Shown piece by piece: positions 4,073-22,486 of a DNA stretch of 64,000 nucleotides. A program made the translations under genes and the position numbers. This DNA comes from Clostridia bacterium. Its GTDB lineage: Bacteria > Bacillota > Clostridia > Oscillospirales > CAG-272. Each line of letters begins with the position of its first letter. Within the stretch, counting starts at the first letter, position 1. The stretch covers positions 6,115 through 70,114 of the forward strand of contig JAFWPR010000004.1 of NCBI GenBank assembly GCA_017545225.1. Reading direction: 5' to 3'. Under the pieces are notes generated by a model that was not told the origin of the DNA, made no database searches, and worked only from the letters and a program-made list of their open reading frames with translations.

Positions 4073-4145
4073 GAGGGCCTTCGGGATCAGCGAGAATGAC
4101 TGATTTAAATATAGCAGATTATAAAGGGGATGGCAAGGGGGAGGA

Positions 4146-4372
4146 TTCAAATCTCTCCCGCCAAAGGAAAAGCACGCCGATGGCGTGCTTTAGTTATCTG
4201 ATGAAGTCAGCGTAAACAGTTCGAGAAGGTGCACCCCCTTTGCGGTGCCCTCCGCTTGCTGACGCAAGCGGGATAAAATCCGTCGTGAAATGGGACCCGC
4301 ACCCATTTCACTTTGCTTCGCAAAGACCGCCGGATTTTACGGCGGCCGTCCGTTCGTTTTTCGATATTTGAG
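4146..4372 (-). ncRNA. candidate structured RNA, unit A (unclassified; GNAT-proximal copy)
   Basis: Copy of a ~227-bp tandem unit with three-way junction stems at 4275-4282/4331-4338, 4311-4316/4320-4325 and 4286-4294/4302-4310, plus a hairpin at 4252-4259/4264-4271. The conserved 18-mer is at 4194-4211 and a terminator hairpin at 4171-4189. Confidence 0.4.
4163..4190 (-). terminator. intrinsic terminator closing unit A
   Basis: Minus strand reads AAGCACGCCATCGGCGTGCTTTTCCTTTGG. Confidence 0.6.
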
Positions 4373-4600
4373 TTCAAATCTCTCCCGCCAAAGGAAAAGG
4401 ACGCAAATGCGTCCTTATATTATCTGATGAAGTCAGCAGTAGTTGTTAGAAAAGATACACCCCGGGTTGCGGTGCCCTCTGCTTGCTGACGCAAGCAGGA
4501 TAAAGTTCTCTTGAAATGGGTCCCGACCCATTTCACCCGGCTTTGCCGGGACGAGAACTTTACGGCGGTTCGGCGTTCGACTCTCTGCATTTGGAGCGGC
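4373..4600 (-). ncRNA. candidate structured RNA, unit B (unclassified; tRNA-proximal copy)
   Basis: Second copy with stems at 4502-4510/4553-4561, 4536-4540/4546-4550 and 4512-4520/4527-4535, plus a hairpin at 4479-4486/4491-4498. The conserved 18-mer is at 4420-4437 and a terminator hairpin at 4397-4416. Stems differ in sequence from unit A but still pair. Confidence 0.4.
4390..4416 (-). terminator. intrinsic terminator closing unit B
   Basis: Minus strand reads AAGGACGCATTTGCGTCCTTTTCCTTTGG. Confidence 0.6.
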
Positions 4601-4714
4601 GCCGCGATTTCGACCGCGGCAGCGTTATCGCCTCCCCTCGGTCCGCCCCCGGCGGCGGGGAGGCGATAACACCCGCGCCGGTTAACCGGCGCTCGAGATT
4701 TTTCTTCTCCGTAG

Positions 4715-4742: not shown

Positions 4743-4744
4743 CA

Positions 4745-4833
4745 CGGAGAAGGAGAGATTTGAACTCTCGCGCCGGTTACCCGACCTACACCCTTAGCAG
4801 GGGCGCCTCTTCGGCCAACTTGAGTACTTCTCC
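4745..4833 (-). tRNA. tRNA-Ser (anticodon GCT)
   Basis: Minus strand reads GGAGAAGTACTCAAGTTGGCCGAAGAGGCGCCCCTGCTAAGGGTGTAGGTCGGGTAACCGGCGCGAGAGTTCAAATCTCTCCTTCTCCG. It has a 7-bp acceptor stem, anticodon loop CTGCTAA, a long variable arm and T-loop TTCAAAT. No CCA is encoded. Confidence 0.9.
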
Positions 4834-4864
4834 GAATTCACAAAATTATTCTTTTGTACACGAT

Positions 4865-6149: not shown

Positions 6150-6965
6150 ATGTTGAAGAAGACGAAGCTCTGGGATAACGGGACCCCGTACTACGACCCC
6201 GCGAAAGGGCAGGACGAGCCGTCGCTCGTCCACTACACCGACCTCGGCGGGAATGCTCGCCCCGACCGCGAAAAGACGGGCTGCGTCATCGTGTTTCCGG
6301 GCGGCGGATACGGCTCCCTGACGGATTACGAGGGCGAACCGATCTCCCGTATGTTCAACAGTTTCGGGATCAGATCCTTCGTTCTCAACTACCGCATTAC
6401 GCCTTATCATTATCCCGCGATCCTTATGGATGCGCAGCGCGCGGTACGCTGGGTCAGATACCACGCCGACGAGCTGATGATCGACCCCGACAAGATCGCC
6501 GTTCTCGGTTTCTCCGCGGGCGGTCACCTCGCGTCGTGCGCGTCGACCGTTTACGACGGAGGACTCTCTGACGGGGACGAGATCGACCGTGTTTCCTGCC
6601 GTCCCGACGCGGGCATCCTCTGCTACGCCGTCATTTCGATGTTCGAGCCGTGGACGCACGACGGAACGAGAGACGTCATGATGGGCGACCGTCCCGACAG
6701 GGAAGAGCTGACCCGACGTCTCACCGGATACCTGAACGTGACGGAGGACACGCCTCCGATCTTCATGTTCCACACGACGGAAGACAGCGCGGTCCCGCAG
6801 GAGAATTCCCTTCTCATGGCGCAGGCGCTCGCCGAAAAGAAGATCCCGTACGAGCTTCACATGTTCATGGACGGAGATCACGGTCTCGGTCTCGCTCTTG
6901 GCAGACCCGGCCTTGAAAAGTGGGGAGAACTCGCTTCCATCTGGCTCAAAAAACTCGGATTCTGA
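6150..6965 (+). CDS. alpha/beta hydrolase (esterase/lipase type)
   Basis: Oxyanion-hole region VFPGGGY, nucleophile elbow GFSAGGH and a C-terminal DGDHG. 271 aa. Confidence 0.75.
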   Translation: MLKKTKLWDNGTPYYDPAKGQDEPSLVHYTDLGGNARPDREKTGCVIVFPGGGYGSLTDYEGEPISRMFNSFGIRSFVLNYRITPYHYPAILMDAQRAVRWVRYHADELMIDPDKIAVLGFSAGGHLASCASTVYDGGLSDGDEIDRVSCRPDAGILCYAVISMFEPWTHDGTRDVMMGDRPDREELTRRLTGYLNVTEDTPPIFMFHTTEDSAVPQENSLLMAQALAEKKIPYELHMFMDGDHGLGLALGRPGLEKWGELASIWLKKLGF

Positions 6966-7539: not shown

Positions 7540-8841
7540 TTATTGCGGTATTTTTTTCGGTTCCGCTTCGACCTGCGCCGCGTCCTCCGTCCCGTCCGCT
7601 TCTCTTTTTGCGGCGGCGAGCATCAGCTTGATGCGGTTCTGCTGGTTTACGACGGACGCCCCGGTATCGTAGTCGATCGCGATTATGTTGATCGACCCGT
7701 TTTTCTTTTTGATCGGTTTCATCATTCCCTTGCCGCAGATGTGGTTCGGCAGACATCCGAACGGCTGAGTGCAGACGACGTTCGTGGCGCCCGACTCGTA
7801 AAGCTCGATCATCTCCGCGGTCAAGAGCCACCCCTCGCCCATCTTGACGCCGTGGCTTATGTATCCCTCGGAGAGGGAGACGGTGCGGTCGAACGGAGTG
7901 TACGGACGGAACGCGCCGTTCTCTTTTATTATCTCAATGACGTCGCGCTGCTTTTTCAAAAGGAATTTGTATGCCAAGCGGTTAAGCCGCCAGCGGAAGG
8001 GACCTCGCCCGTAGAACTCGTGGTCGACGATCCCGTTGTAAACGCAGTACATACAGAAATCGAGCAGTCCCGGAACGACGACCTCCGCCCCCTCGGATAC
8101 GAGGAACGCCTCGAGGTCGTTGTTGCCGAGAGGCGAATACTTTACGAAGATCTCTCCGACGACGCCGACCTTGACCTTCTCGGCCTTCGTCTTCGGGATC
8201 GTGGCGAAATCGCGGACGATCTCGCGGTAGTTCTCCTTGACTTTGCGGTACTTGATCCTGTTGTTCGCCATCTCGTCGGTCAGGCGGAGAGTCCACTCCT
8301 CGGCCTTGCGCTCCGCCGTGCCTTTTTCGTTCTCGTACGGCTTCGTCTGGTTGACGAGCGACATGAGAAGATCGCCGTACGTGACCGCGTAGAGCATCCT
8401 GTGGAGCATCGCGAGCGAGAGCTTGAAGCCGGGGTGACGCTCGATCCCCGCGAGGGAGAACGAGATCACGGGAACGTAACCGTACCCCGCGCGCTCGAGC
8501 GCCTTGCGGAGCAGGGAGATATAGTTCGACGCGCGGCATCCTCCGCCCGTCTGGAAGAGCATCAGGGCGACCTTGTGCGGGTCGTATTTCCCGCTTTCGA
8601 GCGCGTCGATGAACTGCCCGATGACGAGAATCGCCGGGTAGCACGTGTCGTTGTGGACGTATTTCAGCCCCGTTTCGCCGATCTTCGGTCCGGACGTCGT
8701 GAGCACCTGCGCCCTTACCCCGTAGTTGTTCATGACCCGCGCGATGAGCTTGAAATGGATGGGAAGCATGTTCGGAATGAAGACGGTGTAGTCTTTTTTC
8801 ATGTCTTCCGTATATCTGATATATTCTTTTTTCGCCTTCAC
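7540..8841 (-). CDS. acyl-CoA dehydratase activase-related protein (2-hydroxyacyl-CoA dehydratase-like fold)
   Basis: 433 aa with motifs NDTCYPA, QTGGGCRASNY and TQPFGCLPNH, typical of the partner proteins encoded next to BcrAD/BadFG-type activases. Confidence 0.6.
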   Translation of the reverse strand: MKAKKEYIRYTEDMKKDYTVFIPNMLPIHFKLIARVMNNYGVRAQVLTTSGPKIGETGLKYVHNDTCYPAILVIGQFIDALESGKYDPHKVALMLFQTGGGCRASNYISLLRKALERAGYGYVPVISFSLAGIERHPGFKLSLAMLHRMLYAVTYGDLLMSLVNQTKPYENEKGTAERKAEEWTLRLTDEMANNRIKYRKVKENYREIVRDFATIPKTKAEKVKVGVVGEIFVKYSPLGNNDLEAFLVSEGAEVVVPGLLDFCMYCVYNGIVDHEFYGRGPFRWRLNRLAYKFLLKKQRDVIEIIKENGAFRPYTPFDRTVSLSEGYISHGVKMGEGWLLTAEMIELYESGATNVVCTQPFGCLPNHICGKGMMKPIKKKNGSINIIAIDYDTGASVVNQQNRIKLMLAAAKREADGTEDAAQVEAEPKKIPQ

Positions 8842-8874: not shown

Positions 8875-11800
8875 TTAACCTCGCGCGGCTTCTTTTTCCT
8901 CGATCGCGGCGAGGAGCGAGCGCAGTCTGATCTTTACTGCGCCGAGATTCGTTATCTCGTCGATCTTTATCTGCGTGCAGTATTTGCCGCCGTCCTCGAG
9001 TATCCGTCTGACCTCGTCCGTCGTGATCGCGTCGACTCCGCATCCGAACGAGACGAGCTGAACGAGCTCCGTATCGCCGTGTTCCGCGGCGTACCGCGCG
9101 GCGCGGTACAGTCTTCCGTGGTACGTCCACTGGTTGAGGACTCTTACCGACGGCTGTTCGGCGAGATGCGCGACGCTGTCCTCGCTTACGACGACGAAGC
9201 CGAGCGAGAGCGCGAGGCGGTCGATGCCGTGGCAGATCTCCTCGTCGACGTGGTACGGGCGTCCCGCAAGGATCATGATCCGCGTGTTGTTTTCTCTGGC
9301 GTACGCCAGCGCGGCTTCGCCCTCGCGGCGCACCGCCGCGTAGTATTTTTCCTGCGCGGAGAACCCCGCTCTGACGGCGCGGCGCACCGCCGATCTCGTA
9401 AACCCGGCGTCCTTGCCGCCGAGGCACGCGAAGAGTTCTTTTTCGAGCTGGGCTTTTTTGTTGATGTTAAGATACGGGAAGAAGAATCTGCTCTTTCCCG
9501 TGTCCTCGAGATTGCCCGCGAGCAGTTCGGAATAGTACGCCACGACGGGGCAGTTGAAGTGGTTTTCGGTCACTTTTTCGTCCACGTTGTAGGTGATGCA
9601 CGGATAGAAGATCAGATCGACGCCCCGCTCGACGAGTTCCTCAACGTGACCGTGCATGATCTTCGCGGGATAGCACGCGGTGTCGGACGGGATCGTGAAC
9701 TGCCCTTTTTCGTACGTCGCCCTCGTCGACATCCCGGAGACGGAAACCTCGTACCCGAGCGACGAGAAGATCCCGTGCCAGAGCGGGAGAAGCTCGTACA
9801 TTCCGAGCGAAAGCGGGATGCCGACCGTTCCCCTTGTCCCGGGTTTTGAGGGAAGCGAGGTCAGGTATTTTCTCTTGAAATTGTAGAGATTGTGAAGACC
9901 CGCGTCGCCGGGGTCTCGCCCGAGACCGCGCTCGCAGCGGTTGCCCGAGATGAACCTTCCGCCTCCGGAGAACGTGTTGACGGTGAGATGGCAGTTGTTC
10001 GTACAGCCCCGGCAGATCGTGCTCGTCGATTTGTGGGTGAAGTTTTCGAGCGCCTCCCACGGGATCAGACCCGACGGGCCTTTGTGGTTCATCGCTTTGA
10101 GCGCCGCGCCGTACGCGCCCATGAGGCCCGCGACGGCGGGACGGACGACGTGCCGTCCGAGTTCGCGCTCGAGAGCGCGCAGGACCGCGTCGTTGAGCAG
10201 CGTTCCGCCCTGAACGACGACGTGCTCACCGAGATCGTCGGGGCCGGTCGCCCTTATTACTTTATAAAGCGCGTTCTTGACTACGCTGATCGAGAGACCC
10301 GCCGAGATGTCGTCGGCTCCCGCGCCGTCCTTCTGCGCCTGCTTGACCGAAGAGTTCATGAAGACGGTGCATCTGCTCCCGAGGTTGACCGGGGCGCGGG
10401 CGAAAAGTCCCGCTTTCGCGAACTCCTCCGCCGTGTATCCCATCGAACGGGCGAACGTCTCGATGAACGAGCCGCACCCGGAGGAGCACGCCTCGTTGAG
10501 CATGATGCTGTCGATTGCGCCGTTTCTGATGCGGAAGCACTTTATATCCTGTCCCCCGATATCGAGAATGAAGTCGACGTCGGGCATGAATCTTTTGGCC
10601 GCCGTGTAGTGGGCAGCAGTTTCGACGACGCCGATGTCGACGCCGAACGCGTTTTTGATAAGGTCCTCGCCGTATCCCGTGACGGCGCTCCCAGCGATCT
10701 CGATCGAGTCTCCGGCGAGAGAATAGATACGTCCGAGCTGGTCTTTGATCACCTCGACGGGATTCCCTCTGTTGGAGGAATAGTACGAATACAGGATCTT
10801 TCCGCTCTCGGTGAGCAGAACGAGTTTCGTCGTGGTAGAGCCGCAGTCGATACCGAGATACGCGCGGCCCGAGTATGAGTCGGGATCCTCCGTCTCGACG
10901 GTCGCGCGGGCATGGCGCTCCGCGAATTCTTTATAATCTTCCTCCGACTCGAAAAGCGGGGGCAGAGTCGCCTCGCCGGACGACTTCACGATGCAGTTTT
11001 CGATCCTCTCGCAAAGATCCGATAGCGTAGTTTCGAGTCCGTTGTCCCGCGCGAAAAGAGACGCGCCGAGGGAGACGGAATGGCGGGCGTACGGCGGACA
11101 GACCGCGTCGTCTTCCGACAGACCGAGCGTCTCTCTGAAACGCTTGCGGAGTCCCTCGCAGAAAAAGAGCGGGCCGCCGAAGAAAAGGACTTTTCCGCGT
11201 ATTCTGCGCCCCTGCGCGAGGCCCGCGATCGTCTGGTTGACGACCGCCTGATAGATGCTCGCCGCGACGTCCTCTTTTCTTGCCCCCTGGTTGAGGAGCG
11301 GCTGAATATCGGTCTTGGCGAAAACGCCGCACCGCGACGCTATCGGATATATCTTCCCGCTGTCGAGCGAGAGGGCGTCGAGTTCTCCGACGGTCACGTC
11401 GAGGAGCGTCGCCATCTGGTCGATGAACGCGCCGGTCCCTCCGGCGCAGGTGCCGTTCATTCTCTCGTCGACGCTTCCTCCGAAGAATACGATCTTCGCG
11501 TCTTCGCCGCCGAGTTCGATGACCGCCTCGGTGTCTGGGTGATACGCTCTCACGAGTTCGGTCGTCGCGGCGACCTCCTGAATGAAGGGAATACCGGCGG
11601 CATCGGCGACGCCGAGACCGGCGGAGCCCGAGACCGCCGCACGGACGGTCACGTCGCCGAGTTCCGAGAGCGCCTCGCGAAGCAGTTCCGCCGTCTTCTG
11701 TCTCACGGCGGAGAGGTGGCGTTCGTACCGCTCGAATACTATCTTCCCGTCCCTGACTGCGACGATCTTCGCCGTCGTCGAGCCGACGTCGACGCCGACC

Positions 11801-15307: not shown

Positions 15308-15412
15308 TTACAGCGGGATGCGGCAGATGCACCGCAACGGTCGGCCGACCGTTTTCGTCTCCCGGACAACTCCCCGTCCCGGGAGCACTTGACGCGCAAA
15401 TGCCTACTCTGT
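15308..15412 (-). ncRNA. THF (tetrahydrofolate) riboswitch
   Basis: Minus strand reads AGAGTAGGCATTTGCGCGTCAAGTGCTCCCGGGACGGGGAGTTGTCCGGGAGACGAAAACGG...GCGGTGCATCTGCCGCATCCCGCTGT. This matches the conserved THF-I blocks I recall from the Eubacterium siraeum folT riboswitch (AGAGUAG, GCGUUAAGUG, GGGAUG, ACGAA, GCGGUG, GCAUCCGCU). Confidence 0.8.
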
Positions 15413-15438
15413 CATCGCCGTCTTCCGACGGCGTATAT

Positions 15439-19757: not shown

Positions 19758-19786
19758 TTGACAAACGGGGTTGAGTGTGATATCAT
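19758..19786 (+). promoter_or_regulatory. promoter for tRNA-Arg (TTGACA-17-TATCAT)
   Basis: Plus strand reads TTGACAaacggggttgagtgtgaTATCAT. Confidence 0.6.
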
Positions 19787-19833
19787 ATCTTTCGCTGACA
19801 CGAAGGACCGTCCGATCGGTGTTTCGTGTTCAC

Positions 19834-19906
19834 GCGCCTTTAGCTCAGTGGATAGAGTGCCCGGCTACGAACCGGTAGGTCGTGGGTTCGAATCCCCCAA
19901 GGCGCG
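19834..19906 (+). tRNA. tRNA-Arg (anticodon ACG)
   Basis: GCGCCTTTAGCTCAGTGGATAGAGTGCCCGGCTACGAACCGGTAGGTCGTGGGTTCGAATCCCCCAAGGCGCG, with anticodon loop CTACGAA. Acceptor and D arms pair well. There is one apparent mismatch each in the anticodon stem and T stem as I read it. No CCA is encoded. Confidence 0.85.
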
Positions 19907-19907
19907 A

Positions 19908-19945
19908 AAAAGAAAAGGACCGTGGAACGGCCCTTTTCTTTTTCG
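19908..19945 (+). terminator. intrinsic terminator after tRNA-Arg
   Basis: AAAAGGACCGTGGAACGGCCCTTTTCTTTTTC. Confidence 0.65.
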
Positions 19946-19963
19946 CCCATTTGAAGGGGGATT

Positions 19964-20010
19964 CGAAGGCGCCCGGTAGTGAATGACAGCCCGGGGGGCT
20001 GTCAGAGCCG
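19964..20010 (+). repeat. GTAG-headed hairpin element, left copy (inverted partner at 21732..21782)
   Basis: cgaaggcgcccGGTAGTGAATGACAGcccggggggCTGTCagagccg. The 19-nt core at 19971-19989 is the exact reverse complement of 21753-21771. Confidence 0.8.
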
Positions 20011-20166
20011 GGCGTGCCCGAAGGAGCGGTCAGTCTTCGTATTTTGCGAAGACTGACTCCGCCGCTCCTGAGACGAATCCCCCTGCTCCGCAGGAGCAGC
20101 ATGTTTGAAAGGCAGAAACTTCGTCGAAAGCGTTTCAATATCCAGTTTGGTGAGAATTATGGTCTA

Positions 20167-21456
20167 TTATTTATCATCTTTGTTTTCTAAGATTTTGCAC
20201 ATTGTTCGAGAATAATCTAAATACTTACCAAAATGATTCATAAGACCATTAGCAATTATCATTGTTTCTGAAAGTCCACGCAAAGTTAAAGGCCAATATG
20301 TAGTGTAATATGTATCATAATCCTCTACACATTGTGGACCAGATAATATATCTCCAAATAGATAATAACAGGCCTTAAAACTGTTAGTTGTTCGTTCTGA
20401 TTGGAACATCCATAACCCTTTTGCTTGCCTGGGGTTAATAAAAATATGGCGATAGGTATATTTGCGAATGAGTATTTGTTCTGTCGAACAGATTTTTATT
20501 TCTTTGATTGCTTTTTCATATATCTCTTTTGTAAAATCAGGATAATTGACTGATAATAATCCGGCTAAATTATCTGCCGTTGAATATAGCAGAATTGCTA
20601 CCTCAGCACTGATGATTTCTTCATTTAGTGAAAGAGGAAGCGGGGTTAATGCCTTGACAAAATAGTCCAAATATTTAGAAAACACATCATACGGCGTGAT
20701 TGTTACTCGAGGATTGTTGTCTTCTTGGGTTTTCAGTAGTGAAAAAAAGCCATGTCGATTATTCTCTTTTTTCTGGTTTTTACGCTCGTTGTTTATTTTT
20801 TGCTGACATACATCAATCTTTTCGTTTGTATCGCGCCAACCAGCAAGTTGAGAGAATGCTTTTATGGCTTTTTCATACCCTTCAATGGTTTTCTTTTGCA
20901 TCTCAAGAATACCACAGTTATATATTTCAACCTTGCGACATATTTCAGCGTTTTGCTGACATTTATTTGCTAGTTTTGCCGAGTTTTTAAAGTCTTTAAT
21001 ACTATTAAATACTTCTGCCAATTCTAAAAATGCTTTTTCTGATCTGGCGGTATCCATAGCTTGTAATGCTTGATTATACTTTTCAGCATTTTTGGCATCT
21101 TCGATCCTTTTATGTATTTGAGACAAATATCCATTGAGTTCTTGAATTATTTCATCATTACCGAAACGTATTGCTTTTAGGTAGTTTTTGTTTTGATCAA
21201 AAGGAAAATCAATTTTTGCAAGATCTTCCTTGCTTCTTACGTGCAATTCCGCCATTAGTTTCCCTATGTATGCGGTCGCATTTTTAGGGTCACAATCAAG
21301 GACTCTTTCACAATATTCATTTGCGTGTTCCCACTCACTGTCTTCAAGGAATATAAAAACTCTTTCAAGCAATGGGTTTTTTTCAATACTTTTTTCTAGA
21401 GCGGAATATACATTCTCACTATTTTTTTCAAGTTCAAAACTTTCTCTGACTGACAT
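20167..21456 (-). CDS. TPR-like repeat protein with an uncharacterised C-terminal domain (AT-rich, probably horizontally acquired)
   Basis: The ATG at 21456 (MSVRESFELEK...) follows GGAGG. The N-terminal half is helical and TPR-like (EWEHANEYCERVLDCDPKNATAYIGKLMAEL). I do not recognise the C-terminal ~190 aa. The gene is visibly AT-rich compared with its flanks. Confidence 0.6.
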   Translation of the reverse strand: MSVRESFELEKNSENVYSALEKSIEKNPLLERVFIFLEDSEWEHANEYCERVLDCDPKNATAYIGKLMAELHVRSKEDLAKIDFPFDQNKNYLKAIRFGNDEIIQELNGYLSQIHKRIEDAKNAEKYNQALQAMDTARSEKAFLELAEVFNSIKDFKNSAKLANKCQQNAEICRKVEIYNCGILEMQKKTIEGYEKAIKAFSQLAGWRDTNEKIDVCQQKINNERKNQKKENNRHGFFSLLKTQEDNNPRVTITPYDVFSKYLDYFVKALTPLPLSLNEEIISAEVAILLYSTADNLAGLLSVNYPDFTKEIYEKAIKEIKICSTEQILIRKYTYRHIFINPRQAKGLWMFQSERTTNSFKACYYLFGDILSGPQCVEDYDTYYTTYWPLTLRGLSETMIIANGLMNHFGKYLDYSRTMCKILENKDDK

Positions 21457-21731
21457 AAAACCTCCAGATAATATATACCAGATTTTATTGTAATTGTAGC
21501 ATACGTGAATTCTATTTTCAAGTAATAGCAATCCGCTGCTTTGTCCATCTACCTAATCATAATTCTTAATGGTGTTTTCTTCTCCTTCCGTCACGGCTTC
21601 GCCGTGCCACTCTCGCCCGCGGGGCTCTGTGCAGACAGAATAAAGAAAAAATGTACTTCATTGCTACCGTCTGTCTGCCGAAGATTGACGCTCTGCGTCA
21701 ATCTTTCCGCGGTCTCTGCCTATTGCATAAG

Positions 21732-21782
21732 CGGCTCTGACAGTCCACCGGACTGTCATTCACTACCGGGCCGTGCGCTTCG
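21732..21782 (-). repeat. GTAG-headed hairpin element, right copy (inverted)
   Basis: cggctctGACAGtccaccggaCTGTCATTCACTACCgggccgtgcgcttcg, which is the reverse complement of the left copy apart from the hairpin loop and a few flank positions. Confidence 0.8.
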
Positions 21783-21858
21783 CTACCCTCAAGGGGAAGC
21801 CTTATTTTGCTCCGCAGGAGCAGCTTGTTTGACGTGCGGTAAACTGAATAATAAAGCC

Positions 21859-21884
21859 GGAGGCATCAGGGGATGCCTCCCTAC
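21859..21884 (+). repeat. REP-like hairpin GGAGGCATC-AGGG-GATGCCTCC-CTAC
   Basis: 9-bp GC stem followed by CTAC (GTAG on the other strand). Near-identical copy at 56300..56325. Confidence 0.75.
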
Positions 21885-21900
21885 TATACCGCCCCCGTTC

Positions 21901-21929
21901 TTGACAACCCTCGCCCCTTTCTGTATAAT
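21901..21929 (+). promoter_or_regulatory. consensus promoter (TTGACA-17-TATAAT) for the GNAT gene at 21959
   Basis: Plus strand reads TTGACAaccctcgcccctttctgTATAAT. Confidence 0.7.
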
Positions 21930-21958
21930 CTTCCTAACGACGCTCGAAAGGATCAGCC

Positions 21959-22486
21959 ATGCCTCTCAAACTCATCAAACTCACCCCCGAATACAAAACC
22001 GCCCTCATCGAGATGATCGACGAGTGGCGGGCCGATATTGAGAACAATCACACGAACGACTCCCCGTGGACGATATTCAGGAACGATCCGCGGGATTTCG
22101 ACTGTTACCTCGAACACCTGGAATTCAAGAAACCGGAAGGCGGCCGCGTTCCCGATTCCGTTTTCTTCCTTCTGGACGAAGACCGGGACCGTCTTCTCGG
22201 CGCGGTGAATATACGCCATTACCTCAGCGATGAGCTCTTGAAAGAGGGCGGTCATATCGGCGACGGCATACGCCCGACAGAGAGGGGAAAAGGATACGGG
22301 ACGGAGCTCGTCCGCCTCGCTCTTATCGAGTGTCGGAAGCTCGGCATCGACAAGGTCCTTATGACCTGCGACAAAATCAATACCGCCTCCGCGAAGACGA
22401 TAATCAAAAACGGCGGCGTTCTCGAAAACGAATTCGTAAACTCCGACGGCGAGGTCGAACAGAGATACTGGATAACGCTCTGCTGA
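21959..22486 (+). CDS. GNAT family N-acetyltransferase
   Basis: 175 aa with the acetyl-CoA motif RGKGYGTELVRLALIECRKLG. Confidence 0.8.
   Translation: MPLKLIKLTPEYKTALIEMIDEWRADIENNHTNDSPWTIFRNDPRDFDCYLEHLEFKKPEGGRVPDSVFFLLDEDRDRLLGAVNIRHYLSDELLKEGGHIGDGIRPTERGKGYGTELVRLALIECRKLGIDKVLMTCDKINTASAKTIIKNGGVLENEFVNSDGEVEQRYWITLC

Follow-up and report, generated by a model that had tools for sequence, protein, structure and literature searches.

How did a lone AT-rich gene come to stand behind the tRNA-Arg gene of a clostridial genome that is otherwise much richer in G+C? The question is raised by a 64,000-nt stretch of a Clostridia bacterium assembly (GCA_017545225.1, contig JAFWPR010000004.1, positions 6,115 to 70,114), hereafter called the window, in which the gene for a protein of 429 amino acids (aa) has 33.6% G+C overall and 26.5% at third codon positions (GC3), versus 54-61% and 71-78%, respectively, in the neighbouring genes and 57% in the window as a whole. 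A previous inspection of the letters alone, to which we refer as the sequence-only reading, had rightly picked out this break in composition and had taken the gene for the passenger of a non-autonomous mobile cassette that is bracketed by inverted repeats of ~45 bp and lacks a recombinase, the gene beginning about 260 nt after the tRNA. The distance is right, the orientation is not: the gene lies on the minus strand, and it is its stop codon, rather than its start, that faces the tRNA 260 nt away.

The answer that we have reached is plainer than a cassette. The AT-rich gene is a real, recent, foreign and strain-specific acquisition beside tRNA-Arg, and the stretch from the end of this tRNA to the promoter of the next gene, encoding a GNAT acetyltransferase (~19908-21888), is probably a strain-variable hotspot of small structured repeats that holds the foreign gene in one of its modules. 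Of the mobile-insertion reading there remains the foreign and strain-specific gene near a tRNA, while the repeats are lost as cassette ends, and its object reduces to an ordinary event: one strain, one foreign gene, one tRNA-proximal hotspot.

The repeats that had framed the gene are nonetheless genuine. Segments 19971-19989 and 21753-21771 are exact reverse complements of each other, within arms that extend to 40 nt at 93% complementarity (19971-20010 / 21732-21771), and this 19-nt core occurs twice in 64 kb versus 0.01 occurrences expected. The 25-nt direct repeat, present as DR1 and DR2 (table 1), shows a single mismatch between its copies, with 0 expected, and the hairpin of DR1 scores as a weak terminator-like site in the promoter/terminator scan. 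The lack of a recombinase also holds, as neither the list of open reading frames (ORFs) nor the Pfam annotation of the neighbourhood contains an integrase or transposase in or beside the segment.

Limits of the insert in gene-less relatives

The alignment with related genomes that the sequence-only reading had recommended does reveal empty sites, for the gene is missing at the same locus in three contigs that come from this species or a sister species. Two of these, L121 and L122, are contigs of NCBI metagenome-assembled genomes (MAGs) found via an identical flanking AlkZ-related protein, with 96.8% and 93.9% identity to the window; the third, L130, is a metagenome contig located through the repeat, which is about 87-93% identical and covers the entire interval from the AlkZ-related gene to the GNAT gene. 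In L121 and L122, tRNA-Arg is followed by its terminator, a variant of the structured element that we call type A and a single 25-nt repeat, which joins straight to the sequence standing after DR2 in the window. In L130 the AT-rich gene is absent and two tandem modules of ~125 nt, each led by the 25-nt repeat, precede a gene of the HTH-XRE type.

The two modules of L130 provide the key to the limits of the insert. The 55 nt of the window at 20084-20138 align to both of them (692-747 and 818-873), while window positions 21568-21624 match the module interior with ~75% identity. Since the flanks of the insert correspond in this way to the adjacent L130 positions 747 and 749, the foreign DNA spans about 20139-21567, or 1,429 bp, and on this alignment it sits inside one copy of a resident tandem module. 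The presence of two repeat-led modules without cargo in L130 further indicates that the 25-nt repeat is a resident of the locus and no product of insertion; the repeat was duplicated before the arrival of the gene, and independently of it. The inverted repeats fare no better as termini of a cassette, because both arms lie outside the insert, in resident repeats. A target-site duplication was sought outside these arms, and no direct repeat abuts them; the 25-nt repeat itself stands on the gene side of the left arm but on the far side of the right one.

Could the direct repeats still be the scars of an integration? A circular cassette might have entered at the 25-nt hairpin repeat, with a recombinase acting in trans or by a single crossover of Campbell type, DR1 being attL and DR2 attR. 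This would account for direct repeats that enclose the entire segment of 1,724 bp, for the single repeat copy in L121 and L122, and for the sequence after DR1, which is a diverged likeness of that after the chromosomal copy, a pattern that an attP related to attB would show; TGCTCC-GCA-GGAGCA, the core of the repeat, is moreover palindromic and of the kind bound by recombinases, and a toxin-antitoxin pair in another relative (L124, see below) likewise lies between direct repeats. We nevertheless hold such an integration to be unlikely, given that the tandem modules of L130 are separated by module sequence only and that both ends of the inter-repeat segment are homologous to the module interior, so that duplication of the repeat needs no cargo. 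A length of 25 bp is also at the lower limit for homologous recombination.

The same single repeat in L121 and L122 would be left behind if the gene were ancestral and had been deleted from other strains, since recombination between the direct repeats would remove exactly this segment. Such a history is very unlikely in view of a G+C and GC3 so far from the host values, of a protein that is recorded from a single contig, of homologs that all come from low-G+C DNA (31-35% G+C), and of the other cargo held by the more distant relatives L130 and L124.

A probable variable hotspot behind tRNA-Arg

The variation at this locus is not restricted to the foreign gene. The window is 100% identical to L121 and L122 between 19510 and the final base of the tRNA (~19907), then falls to 48-81% identity across the terminator and the interior of the type-A element, and returns to ~95% at the 3' arm of the closing stem of this element and at the 25-nt repeat. 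In the alignments with L121, L122 and L130, the terminator stem of tRNA-Arg is strain-specific in sequence and constant in architecture. Stems that differ in sequence yet keep their architecture could not have arisen by point mutation at this level of divergence, which implies exchange of a whole unit; a segment of ~170 nt behind tRNA-Arg has thus been swapped between strains that are identical upstream of it.

Different strains and species also carry different cargo at the same place behind tRNA-Arg. The HTH-XRE gene of L130 is one case, the 39-nt stretch 21850-21888 of the window standing where L130 has positions 860-2198, that is the rest of the second module together with this gene. Another is L124, from a species with 76% identity in the AlkZ-related protein, in which a MNT/HepT toxin-antitoxin pair, bracketed by ~160-nt direct repeats (7775-7935 and 9290-9450), comes after type-A variants in tandem that terminate in complete copies of the 3' end of tRNA-Arg. 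The ~160-nt repeats contain four AGTTATATT motifs each and resemble iterons or an array of recombinase binding sites.

How, then, would the gene have arrived? Turnover of the hotspot would proceed by recombination at the 3' end of the tRNA and among the repeats, and the gene may have come either with a divergent haplotype of the locus or by separate insertion, possibly as a small element with inverted ends of 9 bp. We rank first the import of a haplotype by recombination, second a small insertion with short inverted ends, and third integration at the repeat. Within 1.85 kb the lineage of the window combines three derived states, namely a canonical repeat core in the resident element, a repeat unit inserted in the frame of the module and the AT-rich gene itself, and a single imported haplotype would be simpler than three separate events.

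Several points weigh against the hotspot reading as set out here and need to be considered together. The gene-less contigs are only three, at 87-97% identity, and two of them end 35-130 nt from the repeat. The insert is flanked by module sequence that is just ~63-75% identical to the modules of L130, which leaves the junctions uncertain by a few bases. There is no second copy of the insert anywhere, so that any mobility of it is putative. Among copies of the dispersed repeat family to which the inverted arms belong (see below), about 7 of ~130 have an AT-rich stretch within 3 kb, a weak association. Finally, the 9-nt inverted ends, outside both copies of which stands TGGTG (20148-20152 and 21570-21574), constitute a weak lead recognized post hoc, their length being reached in 18 of 5,000 shuffles and in 37 of 5,000 random pairs from the window.

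Genomic islands reportedly lie at the 3' ends of tRNA and tmRNA genes, and the locus resembles them in several respects: strain-specific DNA starts right at the 3' end of tRNA-Arg, relatives have different cargo at the same tRNA, and part of the tRNA 3' end recurs downstream as a direct copy, an alternative tRNA 3' half being present in a further contig (L123). It differs from such islands in having no integrase gene by tRNA-Arg among the ORFs and Pfam annotations, and in the position of its sole tRNA-end copy, CGAATCCCCC (10 nt, 20075-20084), which stands ~170 nt downstream and before the gene. As this copy precedes the gene, it does not delimit it; the gene sits in a tandem module instead, and no copy of the tRNA 3' end occurs near the far boundary at 21850-21890.

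The contig just mentioned (L123, ENA k141_41652, corresponding to window positions 19880-19950) is ~97% identical to the window upstream and differs in the 3' half of tRNA-Arg, CCACAGGTTCGAATCCTGTAGGGCGCGCCA, which encodes CCA, and in the terminator. This is as expected had another element integrated into the tRNA of that strain; the 3' half so displaced was looked for in the window and not found. The tRNA-Arg(ACG) genes of the window (19880-19900) and of L124 (9975-9995) have a T-stem (GTGGG/CCCCC) that is mismatched at U50-C64 and leave CCA unencoded, while the variant of L123 has a perfect T-stem and encoded CCA.

The repeat family behind the inverted arms

The two arms that had been read as cassette ends belong to a dispersed family. 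The core of the left arm has the form GTAGTGAATGACAG-N9-CTGTCAGAG within 19971-20010, and scanning one genome per species for exact matches to GTAGTGAATGACAG-N5-15-CTGTCAGAG retrieved at least 119 genome stretches, nearly all from gut MAGs of Oscillospiraceae and other Clostridia; the repeat is found also in nine viral contigs of IMG/VR. Among the matches listed, copies often lie <100 nt from a contig end, as expected for multi-copy repeats that break assemblies, and several contigs of one MAG have copies. The window has only two in its 64 kb.

The family is structured. At the first base pair beyond GACAG/CTGTC, 85 copies have T-A, 29 have C-G and a single one is mismatched; beneath the core, 536 of 690 cells of the stem are paired, compared with 403 ± 8 after shuffling, and RNAalifold on 28 copies finds double changes at 7 of 21 pairs. 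The stems of the family are maintained through compensatory changes. No Rfam 15 family matches the repeat in the window and eight loci, either at gathering thresholds or with E up to 1, the matches obtained there being only to tRNA, the tetrahydrofolate (THF) riboswitch, T-box and S10 leader. The exact core sequence is absent from the searchable literature, in which keyword searches likewise retrieved no description of the repeat; apparently, we are dealing with a large family of structured repeats of gut Clostridia that has not been described.

This evidence bears directly on the possibility that the gene is the passenger of a non-autonomous cassette ended by the ~40-nt inverted repeats and moved by a transposase in trans. 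It is true that the two arms are the sole copies in 64 kb and surround the sole AT-rich gene, and that two random copies in 64 kb would lie no more than 1.8 kb apart only ~6% of the time, by a rough estimate. The cassette is nonetheless extremely improbable. The element that contains the left arm is tied to the tRNA, the T-arm of which it copies, and occurs in gene-less strains, and the insert starts 129 nt inside the left arm and ends 165 nt inside the right one. The transposase family that should share these ends was looked for beside the copies, and none recurs at ~120 genome loci; the recurrent neighbours of ~130 copies are just ordinary genes (MATE, ABC transporters, HTH-XRE). Where copies are paired in other genomes, their orientation is direct and not inverted, and the gene is confined to one contig, with neither multiple copies of the element nor a matching autonomous partner. 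The sequence-only reading had itself named, as an outcome opposed to its own proposal, a dispersed repeat with no link to AT-rich genes, and this is largely what we found, the association with AT-rich stretches being inconsistent across the family. The 40-nt 'inverted repeat' is two independent family members facing each other by chance, the left arm lying in a resident tRNA-linked element and the right arm in a unit that interrupts the module on the upstream side of the gene.

The closest known kind of repeat is that of the GTAG-tagged REP (repetitive extragenic palindrome) and REPIN elements, which are mobilized by RAYT transposases of the HUH Y1 type (Di Nocera et al. 2013; PMC3733652); some of their families, from other phyla, are linked to RAYTs and inserted within small palindromes (PMC3733652). 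The present family shares with them the combination of GTAG, TGAA and a stem of TGACAGNCC/GGNCTGTCA (another GTAG stands at the unit's 5' end), its dispersed, apparently multi-copy and intergenic distribution, and the location of copies inside other palindromes, with nesting and mosaics. It differs in its larger unit (~85-130 nt) with two or three helices, in a core that is near-invariant over many species, even if our search demanded an exact match at 23 core positions, and in a type-A closing stem that is tailored to the adjoining tRNA; the phylum considered here is, besides, outside the scope of the cited study (PMC3733652). No RAYT is present among the recurrent neighbour genes of the repeat copies.

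tRNA-linked and inserted forms of the repeat

Two forms of the repeat can be distinguished. Type A is tRNA-linked: when copies having at least 150 nt of upstream sequence are considered, a same-strand gene for a tRNA or tmRNA precedes type A by 35-80 nt in 32 of 48 cases, as opposed to 2 of 45 for type B, and at least 15 tRNA species are accompanied in this way. The 3' end of type A duplicates, in direct orientation, 20-30 nt of the adjoining tRNA, from the T-loop to CCA and often further, whereas its 5' end is a reverse complement, 9-13 nt long, of the T-loop and the 3' strand of the T-stem, which pairs with the 3' copy. In the window, the element at 19955-20084 has a predicted folding energy of -93.5 kcal/mol (z = -7.65) and folds into a three-way junction, the closing stem P1 of which (19955-19965 / 20074-20084) opposes the inverted T-loop and T-stem 3' strand of tRNA-Arg to their direct copy. 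A variant with the same P1 and P3 stands at the same place in the gene-less L121, L122 and L130.

Simpler origins for these arms were considered and dropped. In copies next to tRNAs with non-palindromic T-loops (L118, L023, L078), the 5' arm truly reverse-complements the 3' arm and does not correspond to the 5' half of the T-arm, which is why a tmRNA 3' half, a tRNA pseudogene and an insertion into the T-arm were all discarded. Copying from mature tRNA was rejected too, as the direct copies extend beyond CCA into the trailer and tRNA-Arg genes without CCA yield copies without CCA.

Type B consists of a unit of ~85 nt (GTAGCGAAGCG ... core ... GACCGAGCCGCAGCGAGAC) set in a 'frame' that is itself rich in hairpins. 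It is inserted there as a discrete piece: in L122 and L130 the same frame is empty. The type-B unit of the window has ~102 additional nt at 21630-21731, after which 21732-21771 forms the right arm of the inverted repeat. In two further loci, L071 (~6600-6750, minus strand) and L107 (~4300-4640, minus strand), the ~85-nt unit is nested in the hairpin loop of another copy's core. An AT-rich stretch follows a type-B copy directly in L092 (3700-6000), where it corresponds to the variable C-terminus of a RHS/YD-repeat toxin and to a small membrane protein, its likely immunity partner.

Might type A be an element in its own right? We propose tentatively, and as unlikely, that it may be a protein-less miniature integrative element of ~150-200 bp, which would target the T-loop in tRNA and tmRNA genes of whatever kind and which carries the tRNA 3' end together with its inverted copy, the resulting arrays then serving as landing pads for single genes of defence type. 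A folded single strand or guide-like pairing may imitate the target site, and repeated integration or exchange, together with the hairpin-inserting unit of ~85 nt, may build the arrays that are seen behind tRNAs. If true, such target-mimicking integration without a protein would give small DNA a novel means of movement, and would also give rise to breaks in assemblies and to variable sites in gut genomes.

Folded single-strand recombination sites are known in the attP of CTXphi and the attC of integrons. Type A is like them in that two inverted target-like copies ~100 nt apart could fold into a duplex imitating the target, and in having no recombinase of its own. It is unlike them in its target, the T-loop of a tRNA and not dif or attI, and the comparison is an analogy only, with neither single-stranded intermediates nor Xer or IntI being indicated here. 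The insert was also compared with an integron gene cassette, and this was rejected: the modules have no RYYYAAC...GTTRRRY boxes, there is no integrase and the gene has its own promoter.

Type A occurs inside tRNA operons as well (L027, L036, L039, L088 and L106), between tRNA-Asp and tRNA-Gly and with no terminator, so that it must be co-transcribed with the tRNAs there; at these loci the duplicated segment reaches 7-9 nt beyond CCA. HTH-XRE homologs with long helical C-terminal regions (230-370 aa) directly follow type A in L023, L061, L105, L130 (1044-2141) and others. The one of L130 holds the position of the AT-rich gene; paralogs being abundant, the association with type A may be due to chance.

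Domain architecture of the 429-aa protein

What does the foreign gene encode? The sequence-only reading had recognized a TPR-like N-terminal region and a C-terminal domain that it could not place, which is correct on both counts. Homology is limited to residues 28-221, with 40-56% identity, and the homologs join this TPR-like module to TIR_2, DUF6273 or membrane segments. In the structure model, residues 28-230 are all helical repeat with a predicted local distance difference test score (pLDDT) >90, forming helical hairpins as in TPR and other helical-repeat proteins; the best fold matches of the module are TPR proteins, weakly so (E ≥0.03), and Pfam TPR_17 remains sub-threshold. The likeness to TIR-TPR proteins lies in this N-terminal part of ~195 aa, which corresponds to their central module. 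TIR-bearing homologs match weakly the PADLOC candidate PDC-S66 through their TIR part, but the C-terminal domain of the window protein is unrelated to them: no Pfam or PADLOC match to a TIR domain is present in the protein, and DUF6273 and a membrane segment are likewise absent.

The C-terminal domain (residues ~236-429) has three homologs among 1.84 billion representatives, all of them standalone proteins of ~200 aa from low-G+C DNA, on contigs too short for gene context. It features the conserved motifs KAKGxWM, NPFxxC and FGDxLxxPxCxE. Taken together, the domain architecture suggests that the protein is most likely a scaffold plus effector of conflict or defence type, with the C-terminal domain as the effector. 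A module known from TIR proteins joined to a domain with three relatives would make it a candidate for a new effector.

Counting against this functional assignment, the whole protein has no significant match in Pfam, NCBIfam, PADLOC or PHROGs, and the C-terminal domain found none in a sequence-profile search of the PDB. Foldseek against the PDB gives for the full model weak and generic TPR matches only, and for the C-terminal model, the mean pLDDT of which is low (55), matches that are meaningless. A tblastn search of the protein against phages and plasmids returned no match.

Four tandem paralogs that combine TIR with the TPR-like module, two of them also with DUF6273, lie in L143 (8001-17447) next to a Band_7/SHOCT gene; the set looks like a diversifying array.

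Organization of the locus and other features

The features of the locus are collected in table 1. The second module begins with a sequence that is identical to L130 (818-859) at 40 of 42 positions and to L122 at 41 of 42. The right flank, annotated with Pfam, is 93% identical to L130 2199-2789, and the GNAT promoter matches the consensus at 12 of 12 positions.

Table 1. Coordinates of the features found between the promoter of tRNA-Arg and the end of the GNAT gene (window numbering).
Feature	Position	Strand	Basis or remark
Promoter-like site ahead of tRNA-Arg	19758-19786		Promoter scan
tRNA-Arg(ACG) gene	19833-19907	+	ARAGORN; Rfam, 61 bits
Terminator hairpin of tRNA-Arg	19899-19951	+	Inverted-repeat search; alignments with L121, L122, L130
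Resident type-A structured element, three-way junction	19955-20084	+	Folding, family, tRNA-copy statistics, covariation
Start of module a: 25-nt hairpin repeat DR1 (20084-20108) and ~30-nt extension	20084-20138	+	
AT-rich foreign insert, 1,429 bp, 33.3% G+C	20139-21567	-	L130 alignment, composition, promoter scan
Possible 9-nt terminal inverted repeat AGAATTATG / CATAATTCT	20153-20161 / 21558-21566		
ORF of 429 aa	20167-21456	-	Within the AT-rich insert
GGAGG ribosome-binding site serving the 429-aa gene			Within the AT-rich insert
Promoter-like site of the insert, TTGAAA-17-TACAAT with upstream TG	21521-21493	-	Promoter scan
Rest of module a (frame F)	21568-21609 + 21787-21807	-	Alignment to L130 module interior
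Type-B repeat unit interrupting frame F	21610-21786	-	Compared with type-B copies of other genomes
Start of module b: DR2 (21808-21832) and extension, module truncated after 21849	21808-21849	+	
Terminator-like hairpin, minus strand	21859-21880	-	
Conserved right flank: consensus promoter (21901-21929), then GNAT acetyltransferase gene (21959-22486)	21901-22486	+	

Elsewhere in the window, two tandem units of ~226 nt lie at 4130-4520, downstream of tRNA-Ser(GCT) (4744-4834, minus strand), and share a block of 55 nt with 75% identity and one of 38 nt with 95% identity. In each unit a partial tRNA-like 3' end, GTTCAAATCTCTCCCGCCA (plus strand), precedes two hairpins, the first terminator-like and the second of CTGATGAAGTCAG, and the pair of units may represent a second family of repeats linked to tRNA ends. 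A hammerhead ribozyme was considered for these repeats and rejected, given no Rfam match with E up to 1. The THF riboswitch of the window (15309-15413, minus strand, 85 bits) lies upstream of genes for an ECF transporter and a folylpolyglutamate synthase-like protein.

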